Source: a virus
Lineage: Duplodnaviria > Heunggongvirae > Uroviricota > Caudoviricetes
Length of the DNA: 64,000 bases
Strand: one strand, 5' to 3'
Virus record (IMG/VR): IMGVR_UViG_3300027977_000006
In this document: positions 2,568 to 45,014 of the stretch, piece by piece
How positions within the stretch are numbered: the first letter of the stretch is position 1
Layout of the letters: the number at the start of each line of letters is the position of its first letter
Program-made: the position numbers and the translations under genes
Notes under the pieces: model-generated
Told to the model about the DNA's origin: nothing
Database searches by the model: none
The model's input: only the letters and a program-made list of their open reading frames with translations

Positions 2568-4304
2568 TTAAAAGCTTTGTAAATTACTTCTTCTCCAACC
2601 ACTCGATGTTTTAACATATAAGTAATCTTCGTCTTTTGTTAGATTTCCTATACTACCATTGGTATCTGTTGAACCAGATGGTGTATATGTTGGTATTGTT
2701 ATAGCTTTTGGTTTAAAATCATTATTGGTTATCCAATTACCATCAGCATCTGTTAATAATTCAGCGGATAAATCTTGACCAAACGCATGTAAAACCCTAA
2801 TTCCACCTTCAACAGCTGTTTGTTGGTTACCACCATAGTTTAAATCTATGTTATTATCCTCAGCAACAATGCTTTGCGTCTCAAGGTATGTATTGCTAGA
2901 AATTGTAGAACCAGATGTAAGCTCTTTAATCGCTTCAACTAATAAAGCACAAACATCCTTATAGTAAACAACCTTTAATCCGTTTTCATAAGTGTAAACT
3001 AATTCTGGAACTATTTGTTCAACTTCTTGAGCGATAAAACCTATTTTTGTTTTATCACCACCAGAATTTTTATCTTTCCAATTAAAAGAAACACCTCTTA
3101 ATTGTTTAACTTTATCTAAAGCCGATACAATTGTTTCAATATTTTCTTTTAATGTAATATCAGATGCATTATTAACAACATTTCCGTTAGCGTCAACACC
3201 AATATCTATTGTACTAGGACCAGCACCGACAGTTTTTATGTTAAGACTTTCAACATACGTGTAGTTACTTGACGTTCCAGTGATATTATTACCTAACACT
3301 ATTGTACCATTTCCACCAGCAATACTATTTTGTCCGTGAACAAATGAAGTTGTTCCACTGGCTATTGAAGAATTACCCCCAGCATGTGAAAAATTACCAC
3401 TTGCTATCGTATTATAATTTTGAGCATGGCTAACATTACCACTTGCTGTTGTTTGACGACCTTCAGCATGTGAAGTCTCAGAGTTACTTGCTATTGTTTG
3501 ACGACCTTCAGCGTGTGAATAATTACCACTTGCTGTTGTACCAAAACCCTCAGCATGTGAATAATTACCAGAAGCCGTAGTTTGAAAACCCTCAGCAACA
3601 GATAAAATACCAGAGGCGACAGAATCGCTATTTATCATAACAATACCGTTATTTGGGGGACCAGATGTTGTTGCAGACCAATAACTGACACCAGAAAAGT
3701 TCAAACTCCAAGCGCCCTTTCCCTCAGAATCAACACATGTCCATACATAACCAACTTGAGGAGCTCTTGTAATAATCAAATCTTCAGTTCTTGTGATACC
3801 AGAAACATCAACCCATATTGTTCTTCCAGTAAAATCTATTGTATTAGCACTGTAGTATGTTAATGTATTTGTGTGAACACTACCACTATAAGCACCACCA
3901 CCCAAATCAATCATTGCTAACCCAACCAAATCAAAAGTAATTCCACTATATGTTGCATTGTATGTATAACCATCTTGTGTAGTCCCAGTTATATCACCTG
4001 TGAATATAGGCCCCACTTCTTGTGTTGTAGCACTAGTTGAAGGTGTAATAGCAGACAAATACGGTTCACCCAATGCCATGCTAGGGTCATACCACGTAAA
4101 AATAGTTGTTCCAGAATTACCAGAAAACGTACTAACCAAATTTGTATATGTTTGTGTTACACCAGTTGTTGTTAGGTCTGGACCAGTAGTTAACGCACTA
4201 TAAGGCATACCAAATTTGGTACCACCAGATAATGCTGTGAATAATTTTTCATATTGTTTGACTTGTCTGTTACTAGAAAAGTCTAATTTTGTTATAAATG
4301 ACAT
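2568..4304 (-). CDS. Tail fibre with YadA-head-like repeats and internal peptidase S74 chaperone domain
   Basis: 578 aa; 14-aa repeats TTASGNYSHAEG; SDITLKENIETIVSALDKVKQLRGVSFNWK...IGFIAQEVE S74 signature. Confidence 0.85.
   Translation of the reverse strand: MSFITKLDFSSNRQVKQYEKLFTALSGGTKFGMPYSALTTGPDLTTTGVTQTYTNLVSTFSGNSGTTIFTWYDPSMALGEPYLSAITPSTSATTQEVGPIFTGDITGTTQDGYTYNATYSGITFDLVGLAMIDLGGGAYSGSVHTNTLTYYSANTIDFTGRTIWVDVSGITRTEDLIITRAPQVGYVWTCVDSEGKGAWSLNFSGVSYWSATTSGPPNNGIVMINSDSVASGILSVAEGFQTTASGNYSHAEGFGTTASGNYSHAEGRQTIASNSETSHAEGRQTTASGNVSHAQNYNTIASGNFSHAGGNSSIASGTTSFVHGQNSIAGGNGTIVLGNNITGTSSNYTYVESLNIKTVGAGPSTIDIGVDANGNVVNNASDITLKENIETIVSALDKVKQLRGVSFNWKDKNSGGDKTKIGFIAQEVEQIVPELVYTYENGLKVVYYKDVCALLVEAIKELTSGSTISSNTYLETQSIVAEDNNIDLNYGGNQQTAVEGGIRVLHAFGQDLSAELLTDADGNWITNNDFKPKAITIPTYTPSGSTDTNGSIGNLTKDEDYLYVKTSSGWRRSNLQSF
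3290..3600 (-). repeat. About 7 tandem 14-15 aa coding repeats (T/S-x-ASG-N-x-SHAEG)
   Basis: Visible in translation and as recurring DNA units such as ttaccacttgct; boundaries approximate. Confidence 0.8.
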
Positions 4305-41259: not shown

Positions 41260-41290
41260 TTGACAAAAAATGTTTTATTACTATATTTAT
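41260..41290 (+). promoter_or_regulatory. Composite promoter (TTGACA plus overlapping late motif)
   Basis: TTGACA 41260-65, TATATT 41282-87, ATATTTAT 41283-90. Confidence 0.6.
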
Positions 41291-41293
41291 TAT

Positions 41294-41364
41294 TGCGTTA
41301 ACTACGTATTAGCACCGACTATTAAAACGGTTTAGAGTTGTTTAGGCAACAAAGGTGTTAGTAC
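41294..41364 (+). ncRNA. Candidate structured 5' leader RNA
   Basis: GTATTAGCACC 41306-16 / GGTGTTAGTAC 41354-64 (11 bp incl. 2 GU), inner GTTGT-TTAG-GCAAC hairpin. Confidence 0.5.
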
Positions 41365-41391
41365 AATAACAAAAATTAAAAGTTAATAAAC

Positions 41392-42228
41392 ATGAAAAAA
41401 AGTATCTGGACAGAAACTGTCCCAACAGCTTACATTGCTGTAAACAAGAGCAGACTTAAGCTCTACAACAAAGATGGCGATATGCCAACTTTCTATCTTC
41501 AAAAAGGACAAGAGTTCCAAATTGAAATCTTTAACCCAACATCAGACGTAATCTTAGCCAAGATTCACTTAAACGGAAAAGCTATCTCACAAGGTGGTTT
41601 GGTATTGAATCCAGGTCAACGTGTGTTCCTTGACCGTTATTTTGATGTTGCACAAAAATTCTTATTTGATACCTATGAAGTTGCAAATACTGAAGAAGTA
41701 AAAAAAGCAATCGAAAATAATGGTGATTTAAAAGTAGAATTTTATAAAGAACAACAATTTGTAACAGCACTTAATTGGATACAACCAGATTTGACTTATA
41801 GACCATGGGTAACACACATTAGCTCACCAATCATTGGGAATACTACCACTACTACTGGACTTAATTTAACAAGCACTAGCAGTAATAGCAGTTTTTTGTG
41901 TAATAGTAATATAACTTATACATCATACGATAGCAAACTTAGTTTTTCAAATGATTTAGATAGTATAAGAAATACCCCTAGAAGTAAAAAGTCCAAATCA
42001 ATTGAAACTGGTAGAGTAGAGAAAGGCTCACATTCAAGTCAAGAATTTAAAACGGTTGCTAAAAAATTTGAATCATTTTCTTTTCATACTGTTGAATATA
42101 AGTTATTACCAGCATCTCAAAAAATTAATACAGTTGATGATGTAAACGTAAAAAAATATTGCACAAATTGTGCACATAAATTAAAAAAAGAATATAAATA
42201 TTGTCCAGTTTGTGCTACTAAAGCCTAA
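41392..42228 (+). CDS. Hypothetical beta-rich protein with C-terminal zinc ribbon
   Basis: 278 aa; CTNC...CPVC; own promoter and terminator. Confidence 0.75.
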   Translation: MKKSIWTETVPTAYIAVNKSRLKLYNKDGDMPTFYLQKGQEFQIEIFNPTSDVILAKIHLNGKAISQGGLVLNPGQRVFLDRYFDVAQKFLFDTYEVANTEEVKKAIENNGDLKVEFYKEQQFVTALNWIQPDLTYRPWVTHISSPIIGNTTTTTGLNLTSTSSNSSFLCNSNITYTSYDSKLSFSNDLDSIRNTPRSKKSKSIETGRVEKGSHSSQEFKTVAKKFESFSFHTVEYKLLPASQKINTVDDVNVKKYCTNCAHKLKKEYKYCPVCATKA

Positions 42229-42257
42229 AAAATAAAATAAAAGTTAACGCATAAAAT

Positions 42258-42290
42258 AACCCGAAGAATTTGCATCTTCGGGTTTTTTAT
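42258..42290 (+). terminator. Rho-independent terminator
   Basis: AACCCGAAGA-ATTTGCA-TCTTCGGGTT + T run. Confidence 0.88.
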
Positions 42291-42300
42291 TGTATATTTG
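42269..42300 (+). promoter_or_regulatory. Bacteroidota promoter with -33 element in the terminator loop
   Basis: TTTG 42269-72, 20 nt, TATATTTG 42293-300. Confidence 0.6.
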
Positions 42301-42317
42301 CGTAAAAATTAGTTTAT

Positions 42318-43055
42318 ATGTGTAATGAAATATTAAAAATGACGAAGCGGTATTCAAACGACACGGAGCTTGGCGCTAAAGTGAGAGGGTATATTAACAG
42401 AACAAATGAGTACCCAACACTCACGGTTTTGATGTGTGTTCACAGTTTTAACGGTACCTATGATTATTTTTTACATCAAGCTTTACAATCCTTAGAGATG
42501 CAAACGTACAAAGATTTTAAAGTTTTGTTGATGTTAGATGGGTGTTGGCCAAATACTATTACTATGGTAAGAAACAATAGTTATAAACTGAATTTAGAAA
42601 TTGTTGAAAGACCCAATAAACAAGGTTTAGCCTTTGCAAAAAATCATGGTTTGTCTTTAATTGACACAGAGTTAGTAGCCTATTTAGATTGTGATGACTA
42701 TTATCTACCAGAAAAATTAGAGAAACAAATAAATTATTTTAGAAATAATGATGTTGATTTTTTAGCAACAGAAACATTGTTACTAAACAATAATAATTTT
42801 ATGATACAATCATGGGGCTTAGGCGCATATGAAACTGATGAAGTAATAAAACAAAATATCTTTCAATCAAATTTTTTAGCTCATGGTACATTTATGATTA
42901 AGAAAAAAGCTTTAGATGAAATAGGTGGTTATAATCACGTCATTGGTATGGAAGATTGGGATTTATGGAAACGTGCAGCTGCTGCGAATTATAAATTTTA
43001 TCAGTTGCCAGAAAGATTGTATGTTTTTAGAATGAATACTAGTGTTTCTAGATAG
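42318..43055 (+). CDS. GT2-family glycosyltransferase
   Basis: TVLMCVH, AKNHGL, AYLDCDD, IGGYN, EDWDLW. Confidence 0.88.
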   Translation: MCNEILKMTKRYSNDTELGAKVRGYINRTNEYPTLTVLMCVHSFNGTYDYFLHQALQSLEMQTYKDFKVLLMLDGCWPNTITMVRNNSYKLNLEIVERPNKQGLAFAKNHGLSLIDTELVAYLDCDDYYLPEKLEKQINYFRNNDVDFLATETLLLNNNNFMIQSWGLGAYETDEVIKQNIFQSNFLAHGTFMIKKKALDEIGGYNHVIGMEDWDLWKRAAAANYKFYQLPERLYVFRMNTSVSR

Positions 43056-43118: not shown

Positions 43119-45014
43119 TTATCTAAGTTCTGCTACGTTGAAAGTAGGTACACCGTCTACACGCACATGACCGTAAAATCTGTTATTTACAATTTTTTTG
43201 GCGTAACGAGTCATGATACCCTTCACTGGAGCGAAGTTGAAAGGATTGTACATAGTAGGAGTAAGTTGCAAAGGCACGTATGGTGCGTAGATGTAACCTG
43301 TATCCAACAATGATTTACCTTTGTGACCGATAATTACAGAGTAAGATGGTGCATATGGGTCACGGTATACTTGATAACGACCACCCAATGTACCGATTCT
43401 TTCGATACCCATGTTATATTGGTCTTGCTCAGGGTTAGCATCAGATACGTGGAAGTATTCTAAGTCATCGAATACAGCTGAAATTTCAGAAGATACAACG
43501 ATGAAGTTAGCACCACCACGAAGTGTTGACTTGTGGATTTGAGCAGAGATTTGGTTAATCTTAGTGATAAGAGTTTGGTTCCAGTCCTTTTGAGTGTAAG
43601 GGCTAGCAGCAGAAGAAGCTCTTCTCCATCCGTTGTAGTCCCAACGCAATTGCCATGCAGCAGCTTTACGAAGGTCTCTAAGGATTTCACGGTCAATTTC
43701 CGCAGCAACTTGCTCAGAAAGCATTGCAGTCAATTCAGCTTCAGCATCAATGTTGTGGAATGCACTAACGTCTTGAGCTAATTCTGGTGACCATGTTGCA
43801 CGTAATTTTCTTTCTTCAACAGCAACAACAACTTCATCAAGTCTGAAAGAAACTTCATTCAATTCAGTTTCCAATTCAAGAGAAGCGTATTCAGCCCATG
43901 AGAAAGCTAAACCAGCAGTTGTAGTGATAGCAGATATAGTTGTAGCAGAAGCACCAACATAACCATCATAGGTTGAAGTACCTGGAACTACAGCAGCAGC
44001 AGAACCAGCAGTTGTACCTACTGGGTGAGTAAGGTCAAGCTCAACATACATAACACCATTTGGTGTAGTCAATACTGGGTAACCAGAAGAGTTTACGTTT
44101 GTTGTTTGAACGATAGCTTTACCATATTGTTGAGTAACGATACGGAAAGGAACTTCAGTACCAGCAGCGATGATAGTATTACCATCTTTGTCAAGAATTG
44201 CGTTAGTTGTTACACAGTGCAATGAAGCCAAGAATGACTCAGTGTCCATGTTGTTACCATCAGGACCAGTCAATACTTCACGACCAGCAGGTGAACCAGC
44301 ACCACCAGTGAAACCACTAATGGTTAACATAGCGTATCTTACAGAACCGTCAGCAGCAGTAGCCCATGAAGTACTTGGAGCTGGAGTTGAGAAAGAACCA
44401 CCAGCACTTAATGCAGAAGCGTTAGCGTTTGTGATAGTATAAGTTCTGATAGTAAGAGTACCTTTAGATTGGTCAAACATACCGTCATTGTAGAAAATGT
44501 CGTATAAGTTTTTAGCCATAAAAGGTGTTACAGCACAACTTCCATTAGATGGCAATACGCAAGATGGAATACCAGTAGAAGCAAATGATGTGTGAGCTGA
44601 GTAAGGACTGTTTGTACTGTTATAGTTAACATTATCATAGTTATTACCAGCTACAGGAGGTGTAGAACCATCTACACGGCTAGATGTAAGAGGTACGAAA
44701 TAGAACAATTTACCGATAGGCATGTTCATAGCTTGAACTGACACAACGTCATTAGCTAATAATTTAGAGAAAACACGTCTTACGATAGGGAATACTACTG
44801 TTTCGAATGAACCAGAAGAAGTCGCAGTTGTAGTTTCAGTCAACAAAGTTGAAGCTTGGTTTTCATACAACTGAGCGATGTTTTCTTTTACGTGGCCTTT
44901 AAGACCTTCAAGGAAGCCTAAGCTTTCCCACTTTGATTGGGTTTCTTTACGGATAGCCTTCATGTGGTTTAATCCGATGTTACCCACTTGTCCAGATGTT
45001 AATAAATGTGACAT
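43119..45014 (-). CDS. Major capsid protein (T4 gp23-like) with large insertion
   Basis: KWESLGFLEGL, VSVQAMNMPIGKLFY, RKLRATWSPELAQD..AFH.IDAEAEL, YIYAPYVPL, GIMTRY. Confidence 0.95.
   Translation of the reverse strand: MSHLLTSGQVGNIGLNHMKAIRKETQSKWESLGFLEGLKGHVKENIAQLYENQASTLLTETTTATSSGSFETVVFPIVRRVFSKLLANDVVSVQAMNMPIGKLFYFVPLTSSRVDGSTPPVAGNNYDNVNYNSTNSPYSAHTSFASTGIPSCVLPSNGSCAVTPFMAKNLYDIFYNDGMFDQSKGTLTIRTYTITNANASALSAGGSFSTPAPSTSWATAADGSVRYAMLTISGFTGGAGSPAGREVLTGPDGNNMDTESFLASLHCVTTNAILDKDGNTIIAAGTEVPFRIVTQQYGKAIVQTTNVNSSGYPVLTTPNGVMYVELDLTHPVGTTAGSAAAVVPGTSTYDGYVGASATTISAITTTAGLAFSWAEYASLELETELNEVSFRLDEVVVAVEERKLRATWSPELAQDVSAFHNIDAEAELTAMLSEQVAAEIDREILRDLRKAAAWQLRWDYNGWRRASSAASPYTQKDWNQTLITKINQISAQIHKSTLRGGANFIVVSSEISAVFDDLEYFHVSDANPEQDQYNMGIERIGTLGGRYQVYRDPYAPSYSVIIGHKGKSLLDTGYIYAPYVPLQLTPTMYNPFNFAPVKGIMTRYAKKIVNNRFYGHVRVDGVPTFNVAELR

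Follow-up and report, generated by a model that had tools for sequence, protein, structure and literature searches.

Covarying complementarity between predicted mRNA ends, and a structured leader, at a gene of Lak-related huge phages

Introduction

To our knowledge, end-to-end pairing of mRNAs in bacteria and phages has been described for a handful of single genes, namely hok, icaR and hbs, and phylogenetic backing for it is rare outside hok. Emory et al., in 1992, reportedly showed that base pairing at the 5' terminus stabilizes bacterial mRNAs. The hok mRNA of plasmid R1 forms a long-range helix between its 5' and 3' ends, with phylogenetic support from coupled covariation (PMC9841398). [quoted passage not shown]

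Here we describe a single-gene cassette within a 64-kb stretch of phage DNA from IMG/VR (64,000 nucleotides in all, called the window below). The cassette resembles the 5'-3' UTR interactions of hok, hbs and icaR without belonging to any of these systems. As in hok, the two extremities of the full-length mRNA are connected by a long-range helix, here predicted, and the 5' element may have nearer alternative partners. The phage ORF differs from hok in encoding a conserved protein of 278 aa, whereas the hok toxin has about 50 aa; it has neither an overlapping reading frame nor a known antisense RNA, and its alternative pairings lack solid covariation. With hbs the cassette shares a long-range UTR duplex (about 14 bp in hbs, a predicted 10-16 bp in the phages), which by analogy may affect decay of the phage mRNA. 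The hbs duplex, however, overlaps with an RNase Y site that is internal to a long leader, whereas the phage duplex involves the very first predicted nucleotides of the transcript, and the hbs case comes from one species rather than from broad covariation. In icaR, too, a 3' box pairs with the 5' UTR of its own mRNA, but that box is an anti-Shine-Dalgarno sequence which blocks the ribosome site and recruits RNase III, whereas the partner of the phage box is the 5' terminus at 41294-41303, about 88 nt upstream of the start codon. Finally, the phage pairing starts from the first predicted nucleotides of the transcript, as in the 5'-terminal stabilizer hairpins of ompA and papA, which protect against 5'-end-dependent decay; those are local hairpins, whereas the partner in the phage lies about 940 nt away, beside the terminator.

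Results

A predicted self-contained transcription unit

The window positions 41260-42290 read, from their sequence signals, as a self-contained unit made up of a strong promoter, a 98-nt leader, an ORF of 278 aa and a strong terminator. The promoter and terminator predict that the ORF is transcribed on its own mRNA. The main features of the unit, with the neighboring capsid gene, are:

41260-41290, plus strand: promoter (-35 at 41260-41265, 16-nt spacer, -10 at 41282-41287)
41283-41290, plus strand: recurrent 8-nt phage promoter motif, overlapping the -10 hexamer
41392-42228, plus strand: ORF of 278 aa (from N to C terminus, an Ig-like beta sandwich, a disordered S/T/N-rich linker and a four-Cys zinc ribbon)
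42258-42290, plus strand: intrinsic terminator (10-bp stem at 42258-42284, 7-nt loop, T tract)
43119-45014, minus strand: Gp23-type major capsid gene

An earlier note on this DNA, made from the letters alone, had described a promoter, a leader of about 100 nt, a zinc-ribbon ORF and a strong terminator, and all four were found where it had placed them. The promoter matches at 11 of 12 positions and has the top score of an 8-kb scan; its -35 and -10 elements are kept in nearly all homologous loci. The leader is unusually long, as the note had remarked: the 8-nt motif recurs 12-23 nt before the ATG of many genes in the window, whereas here 101 nt separate it from the ATG at 41392. Of the copies of this motif that were listed, the one at 41283 is the sole intergenic case with a TTGAC -35 word 5' of it, which suggests that the cassette promoter belongs to a different class or has different timing. 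The terminator, which scores on the minus strand too, is kept in aligned relatives with compensatory changes in its stem.

Translation with table 11 shows the window to be densely coding, and a head maturation protease is encoded in it along with the capsid protein. In phage databases, near-full-length relatives of the 278-aa protein were found only in Prevotella Lak megaphages and in other 'huge phage' records of 460-735 kb, at 31-39% identity; nearer relatives come from lake and other environmental metagenomes. Because of the capsid and protease genes and the relatives of this protein, the window is assigned to a very large T4-like phage related to Lak, and within its genome to the structural region. 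Gene order is kept among relatives (a 468-aa gene, a 240-aa gene, the 278-aa ORF, a variable small gene and the capsid region), and the intergenic spacer upstream of the ORF keeps a constant length of 138-140 nt among relatives with 58-100% identity. The gene 3' of the terminator varies, being a 245-aa family-2 glycosyltransferase here (window 42289-43055) and an ORF of 51-65 aa in close relatives. A short promoter-like motif lies directly 3' of the terminator T tract in the window and in all close relatives compared.

The 278-aa protein has 1791 database relatives. Its zinc-ribbon matches in Pfam fall below the cut-off; the four cysteines are invariant across 36 homologs. The AlphaFold model (mean pLDDT 58) consists of the beta sandwich, a disordered linker, and a final strand with the zinc ribbon. 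A PHROGs search with the protein gave no function, a PDB sequence profile search gave no match, and Foldseek with the model returned nothing at E <= 0.001, while a VIA-wide structure search recovered generic Ig-like sandwiches only (Z ~7). The product is probably an Ig-like protein of the structural region.

The leader folds into a conserved three-way junction

Taken by itself, the leader has a predicted fold with z = -1.7, and a stretch of 1 kb not uncommonly contains a 10-nt inverted repeat; the case therefore rests on comparison rather than on a single sequence. We used about 90 homologous loci from metagenomes and IMG/VR with protein identities of 41-100%. Exact protein matches or a conserved leader word yielded 26 loci, phage records contributed 5, and 80 came from IMG/VR by means of a protein-alignment query. 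A single-protein query had returned no relatives in viral or metagenome contigs, whereas the alignment query did retrieve loci.

The predicted structure of the leader in the window is as follows:

41306-41364, plus strand: leader three-way junction, about 59 nt, in which helix P1 encloses hairpins P2 and P3
41306-41316 with 41354-41364, plus strand: P1, 11 bp, present in both the MFE and the centroid fold
41317-41320 with 41329-41332, plus strand: P2, a hairpin inside P1
41337-41341 with 41346-41350, plus strand: P3, a hairpin inside P1
41333-41336 and 41351-41353, plus strand: junction bases, nearly invariant

P1 is the 11-bp stem proposed in the earlier note, and it covaries in homologs, with compensatory changes already visible among nine non-identical leaders. 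A covariance model built from these nine gave 88 matches to E ~1e-3, located directly 5' of the homolog in nearly every locus. In the alignment of 74 distinct leaders, which was fitted to the covariance model and so favors pairing, 99.6% of 1398 cells are paired. Double changes occur in 15 of 19 leader pairs, with 190 compensatory cells among the 74 distinct sequences, a count that, like the cell counts below, overstates the number of independent events because the loci share ancestry. When the registers were slid by 1-3 columns, only 33-52% of cells paired, and none of 500 shuffles reached the observed values. An artifact of the fitted alignment is unlikely given the size of the effect and the fact that RNAalifold, run independently, recovers P1, P2 and P3.

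P1 holds two invariant G-U wobble pairs. The same topology of P1, P2 and P3 is the MFE fold in gut Lak-C1 (L028), Lak-B5 (L029) and three other huge-phage records with protein identities of 33-39%. A leader of this kind is predicted 5' of the homolog in L027, L028, L029 and L030.

In terms of known RNA families, Rfam 15 gave no match in the window at the gathering threshold and none in the leader at E <= 10, ARAGORN found no tRNA or tmRNA in the leader, and a full-text literature search retrieved no description of the motif. We conclude from the covariation that the leader is a real structured RNA, uncatalogued and conserved as far as the gut Lak megaphages. The earlier suggestion of an unrecognized structured RNA is thereby upheld: a covarying three-way junction is present, and no Rfam family matches it. 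A hammerhead-like core was considered for the leader and does not fit the junction sequences.

The leader combines covarying helices with conserved unpaired junction bases, which are features of the riboswitch type. Its junction could be a true small-metabolite riboswitch, with the end pairing described below either as its expression platform or unrelated to it. The junction is compact, with nearly invariant unpaired bases and invariant G-U pairs, the 5' box, at the predicted transcript start, directly flanks P1, and its size and topology are akin to those of small three-way-junction aptamers. It shares with purine-type riboswitches and ribosomal-protein leaders a position in the 5' UTR and a P1 that encloses two hairpins with conserved junction bases, but it is unlike any Rfam family. 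Moreover, an Ig-like protein, probably of the structural region, offers no clue to a ligand, and no obvious terminator or element sequestering the start site overlaps P1, so that we regard a metabolite riboswitch as quite unlikely.

The ends of the predicted transcript are complementary and covary

The two elements at the transcript ends are:

41294-41303, plus strand: 5' box (E5), about 10 nt at the very start of the predicted transcript
42242-42251, plus strand: trailer box (E3), the exact reverse complement of the 5' box, 14 nt past the stop codon, with the terminator stem 6 nt beyond it

The exact reverse complementarity of these segments, first pointed out in the earlier note, was verified. 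The core of the boxes is a 6-bp palindrome. The 10-mer of the 5' box has three copies in the window against 0.12 expected, a number reached by none of 100 shuffles. The third copy, at window 4188-4197 on the minus strand within the 5' part of a 578-aa coding region, is probably due to chance.

Using seeds of Watson-Crick pairs only, we found at least 8 contiguous pairs between the ends in 57 of 70 distinct loci. The 5' boxes of these phages differ in many ways and each has its own matching trailer box; in one relative (L031) the box sequence is unrelated, yet a 12-nt complement is retained. The duplex varies from 10 to 16 bp in length across loci, and the trailer box generally falls between the stop codon, 8-20 nt upstream of it, and the terminator hairpin, 5-10 nt downstream.

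We tabulated the pairs in a register-anchored table, which selects loci that already have a seed match and contains at least about 10 distinct haplotypes of 5' box and trailer box. Positions +0 to +10 are almost always paired, by several pair types each: GC 22, AU 19, UA 5 and GU 3 at +1; CG 32, AU 8 and UA 6 at +2; GC 41, UA 5 and AU 4 at +3. Overall, 77% of the end-helix cells are paired compared with 25-36% in slid registers. Double changes occupy 128 cells, against 50.7 +/- 7.0 in column shuffles, none of which (0 of 1000) reached 128. Register-anchored column shuffles served as the control here, as whole-trailer dinucleotide shuffles are noisy, being dominated by GC-rich terminator stems. 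The 5'-3' end pairing put forward in the earlier note thus holds up among homologs: leader stem and end complementarity are both conserved, and both covary.

In partition-function folding of the transcript of about 1 kb, the end helix had a probability of 0.97 for the window sequence and of 0.5-0.99 for 11 relatives. The position of the duplex follows the promoter, as in 42 of 56 loci the first paired base stands 5-6 nt past the -10 hexamer. This spacing persists in loci whose leader model starts 7-9 nt from the hexamer; there, complementarity reaches further upstream. The duplex begins, on this prediction, at or just before the transcript start, and the predicted start does not fall downstream of 41303. 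A crude scan of the other terminators of the window, limited to the longest match per terminator, revealed no similar complementarity between promoter-proximal and pre-terminator sequences.

Covariation alone cannot distinguish RNA pairing from concerted evolution of an inverted repeat in DNA. The boxes might bind one protein, such as a regulator or a recombinase, or mark the two ends of a cassette that was once mobile or can invert, with co-evolution or gene conversion keeping the repeats alike. The repeats do bound the ORF, their core is palindromic, they stay with the promoter and terminator despite inserted genes (see below), and a single protein reading both sites would produce equal covariation. 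Against this, the cassette has a syntenic position, the same neighbors and a constant orientation in all ~90 loci, unlike a mobile or invertible element, and searches of the window for domains (Pfam and PHROGs) found no transposase or recombinase. The repeats also drift freely in length and sequence, to the point that those of L031 are unrelated, and their left boundary keeps to the spacing from the -10 hexamer that is expected for the start of a transcript. At non-Watson-Crick core positions, G-U outnumbers A-C by 10 to 4 when read on the plus strand, a weak and only suggestive pointer to the sense RNA. A DNA-level origin of the repeats is, in our estimation, highly improbable. Comparison across the loci shows both the leader junction and the end helix to be evolutionary constraints, which are read here as acting on the plus-strand RNA.

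Two other roles for the trailer box were considered and rejected. An antisense promoter at this position is contradicted by minus-strand spacing and upstream sequence, neither of which is conserved, and an antiterminator role was set aside because the box does not overlap the terminator stem.

Stems processed by RNase III span about two helical turns (~20 bp or more). The end helix and P1, of 10 and 11 bp, are separated by a 2-nt spacer, and if stacked coaxially they would form a duplex of approximately two turns that might be cut by RNase III or another double-strand nuclease. Such cleavage would trim leader and trailer and thereby mature or inactivate the mRNA, as with rRNA precursor stems or with icaR, whose 5'-3' UTR duplex is cut by RNase III (PMC3868564). 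The end helix by itself (10-16 bp) is nevertheless under the typical length of an RNase III substrate and attains ~21 bp only if stacked on P1, and no conserved internal loop of the kind present in known phage RNase III sites was observed. A processing site is, in our view, very improbable.

Possible alternative partners of the 5' box

A further sequence element is found close to the start codon:

41381-41387, plus strand: pre-ATG box, 7 nt that nearly repeat the core of the trailer box, located 5 nt 5' of the start codon

This sequence is kept in nearly all loci and is absent before other genes. Its presence raises the possibility of a translation switch similar to that of hok, in which the 5' box of a nascent or 3'-trimmed RNA would pair with the pre-ATG box or within a local hairpin, damping initiation, until completion of the transcript provides the trailer box as a stronger partner, which would free the start region and permit translation; with polarity reversed, the closed RNA would stay inert pending its processing. 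The tac, fbi and ucb elements and the metastable hairpin of hok are a precedent for such behavior (PMC9841398).

Several observations are consistent with a switch. When the leader is folded alone, the pre-ATG box pairs with the 5' box, and the 5' 14 nt of the leader pair with its last 28 nt with 3.7 expected base pairs, compared with 1.3 for shuffled 5' boxes. L031 shows the same closure of the leader, by pairing of 5' box and pre-ATG box, with entirely different letters. In L012, a single lineage, a G-to-A substitution in the 5' box is accompanied by matching C-to-T substitutions both in the local partner and in the trailer box.

The comparative and folding results point the other way. Pairing between 5' box and pre-ATG box shows no covariation beyond shuffles (76.4% vs 76.7%), and in equilibrium folding its probability is only ~0.1 once the ORF is included, while the start region is equally accessible with and without the trailer. 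The local alternative, a 5-bp hairpin at the extreme 5' end, is paired in 81% of cells and has 6 double-change cells against 2.7 expected, a value reached by 19 of 500 shuffles; it also overlaps the outer three pairs of P1. Of the competing helices that the earlier note had proposed, two correspond to the real hairpins P2 and P3, whereas this third one is weakly supported, and the note's description of the leader as switch-like is not borne out by either the covariation or the equilibrium folding. A hok-like translation switch through alternative partners of the 5' box, which we consider unlikely, is a weaker rival to closure and protection of the ends.

Loci with displaced or absent trailer boxes

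The 13 of 70 loci that have no box directly past the stop codon are informative as to how strictly the arrangement is kept. In nine of them a box is found at a greater distance, always immediately 5' of a hairpin and T tract resembling a terminator. In eight loci this box lies 870-1200 nt downstream, with an extra gene inserted. Since an additional gene separates the ORF from its trailer box in these eight loci, closure is not indispensable. The gut Lak phages and other huge-phage records that carry the leader (L027, L028, L029 and L030) have no significant 5'-3' complementarity, and both the gut Lak phages and the loci with inserted genes appear to do without end pairing.

The inserts themselves vary. 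In L064 the stop codon and the trailer box are separated by an antisense gene for a LAGLIDADG-type homing endonuclease (PF14528, E 1.9e-10; L064:2341-3120, minus strand), and a hairpin with T tracts on both strands directly follows the ORF stop. An ORF of 269 aa occupies the same place in L049 (2373-3182, minus strand). Of the eight loci, at least these two carry a minus-strand ORF (260-269 aa) in the insert, and both have a hairpin directly past the stop codon. Inserts of similar size are found in L035, L058, L074 and L085.

Rearrangements of the ORF were also observed. It is tandemly duplicated in L083 (560-2440) and L060 (468-2500), two of the eight loci with an extra gene, where the second copy is preceded by a degenerate copy of the leader (<=30 bits), and the trailer box complementary to the 5' end of the first leader stands past the second gene. 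In L111 (1501-2430), the ninth locus with a more distant box, a stop codon breaks the homolog before the zinc ribbon, the ribbon-coding sequence runs on past this stop, and the trailer box is found 89 nt beyond it.

Discussion

We give a probability of roughly 60% to the reading that the end helix closes and protects the ends of the mRNA, making it long-lived, and that the leader junction is a separate regulator that binds a protein or ligand. According to this model, the first 10-15 transcribed bases would pair with the trailer box to form a 'panhandle', in which the ends of the finished transcript are held in one helix. This helix would remove the single-stranded 5' end that 5'-end-dependent RNases and pyrophosphohydrolases require, and it would buttress the 3' hairpin, resulting in a compact, long-lived mRNA for a late-region gene. 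By analogy with the systems described above, we infer that the end helix stabilizes the mRNA. The three-way junction would serve as a separate binding site tuning expression, recognized either by a small ligand or by a protein, possibly the zinc-ribbon product itself; a zinc ribbon would fit with recognition of the protein's own leader. As long as the 3' end is still unsynthesized, the 5' box may occupy the pre-ATG box or take part in a small local hairpin. Such local pairing in an incomplete RNA may damp translation until synthesis of the transcript is finished.

A more far-reaching proposal, which we hold to be doubtful, is that the three boxes and the junction together constitute a programmed folding pathway of the mRNA, such that translation would proceed only from complete, end-closed transcripts and the junction would be a new class of aptamer that senses a protein or ligand and sets the state of the switch. 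If true, this pathway would be a phage counterpart of the hok folding program, outside toxin-antitoxin systems.

The leader motif is a candidate for a new protein- or ligand-binding element in a phage group whose gene regulation is essentially unexplored. More than 50 related phages carry compensating mutations that support the leader structure and the end helix alike, and the end helix covaries over dozens of phage lineages. Because it covaries, follows the predicted transcript start and stays by the terminator despite inserted genes, the cassette would be an unusually clean natural system in which to study what closure of mRNA ends does in prokaryotes, be it in stability, ribosome recycling, quality control or processing.
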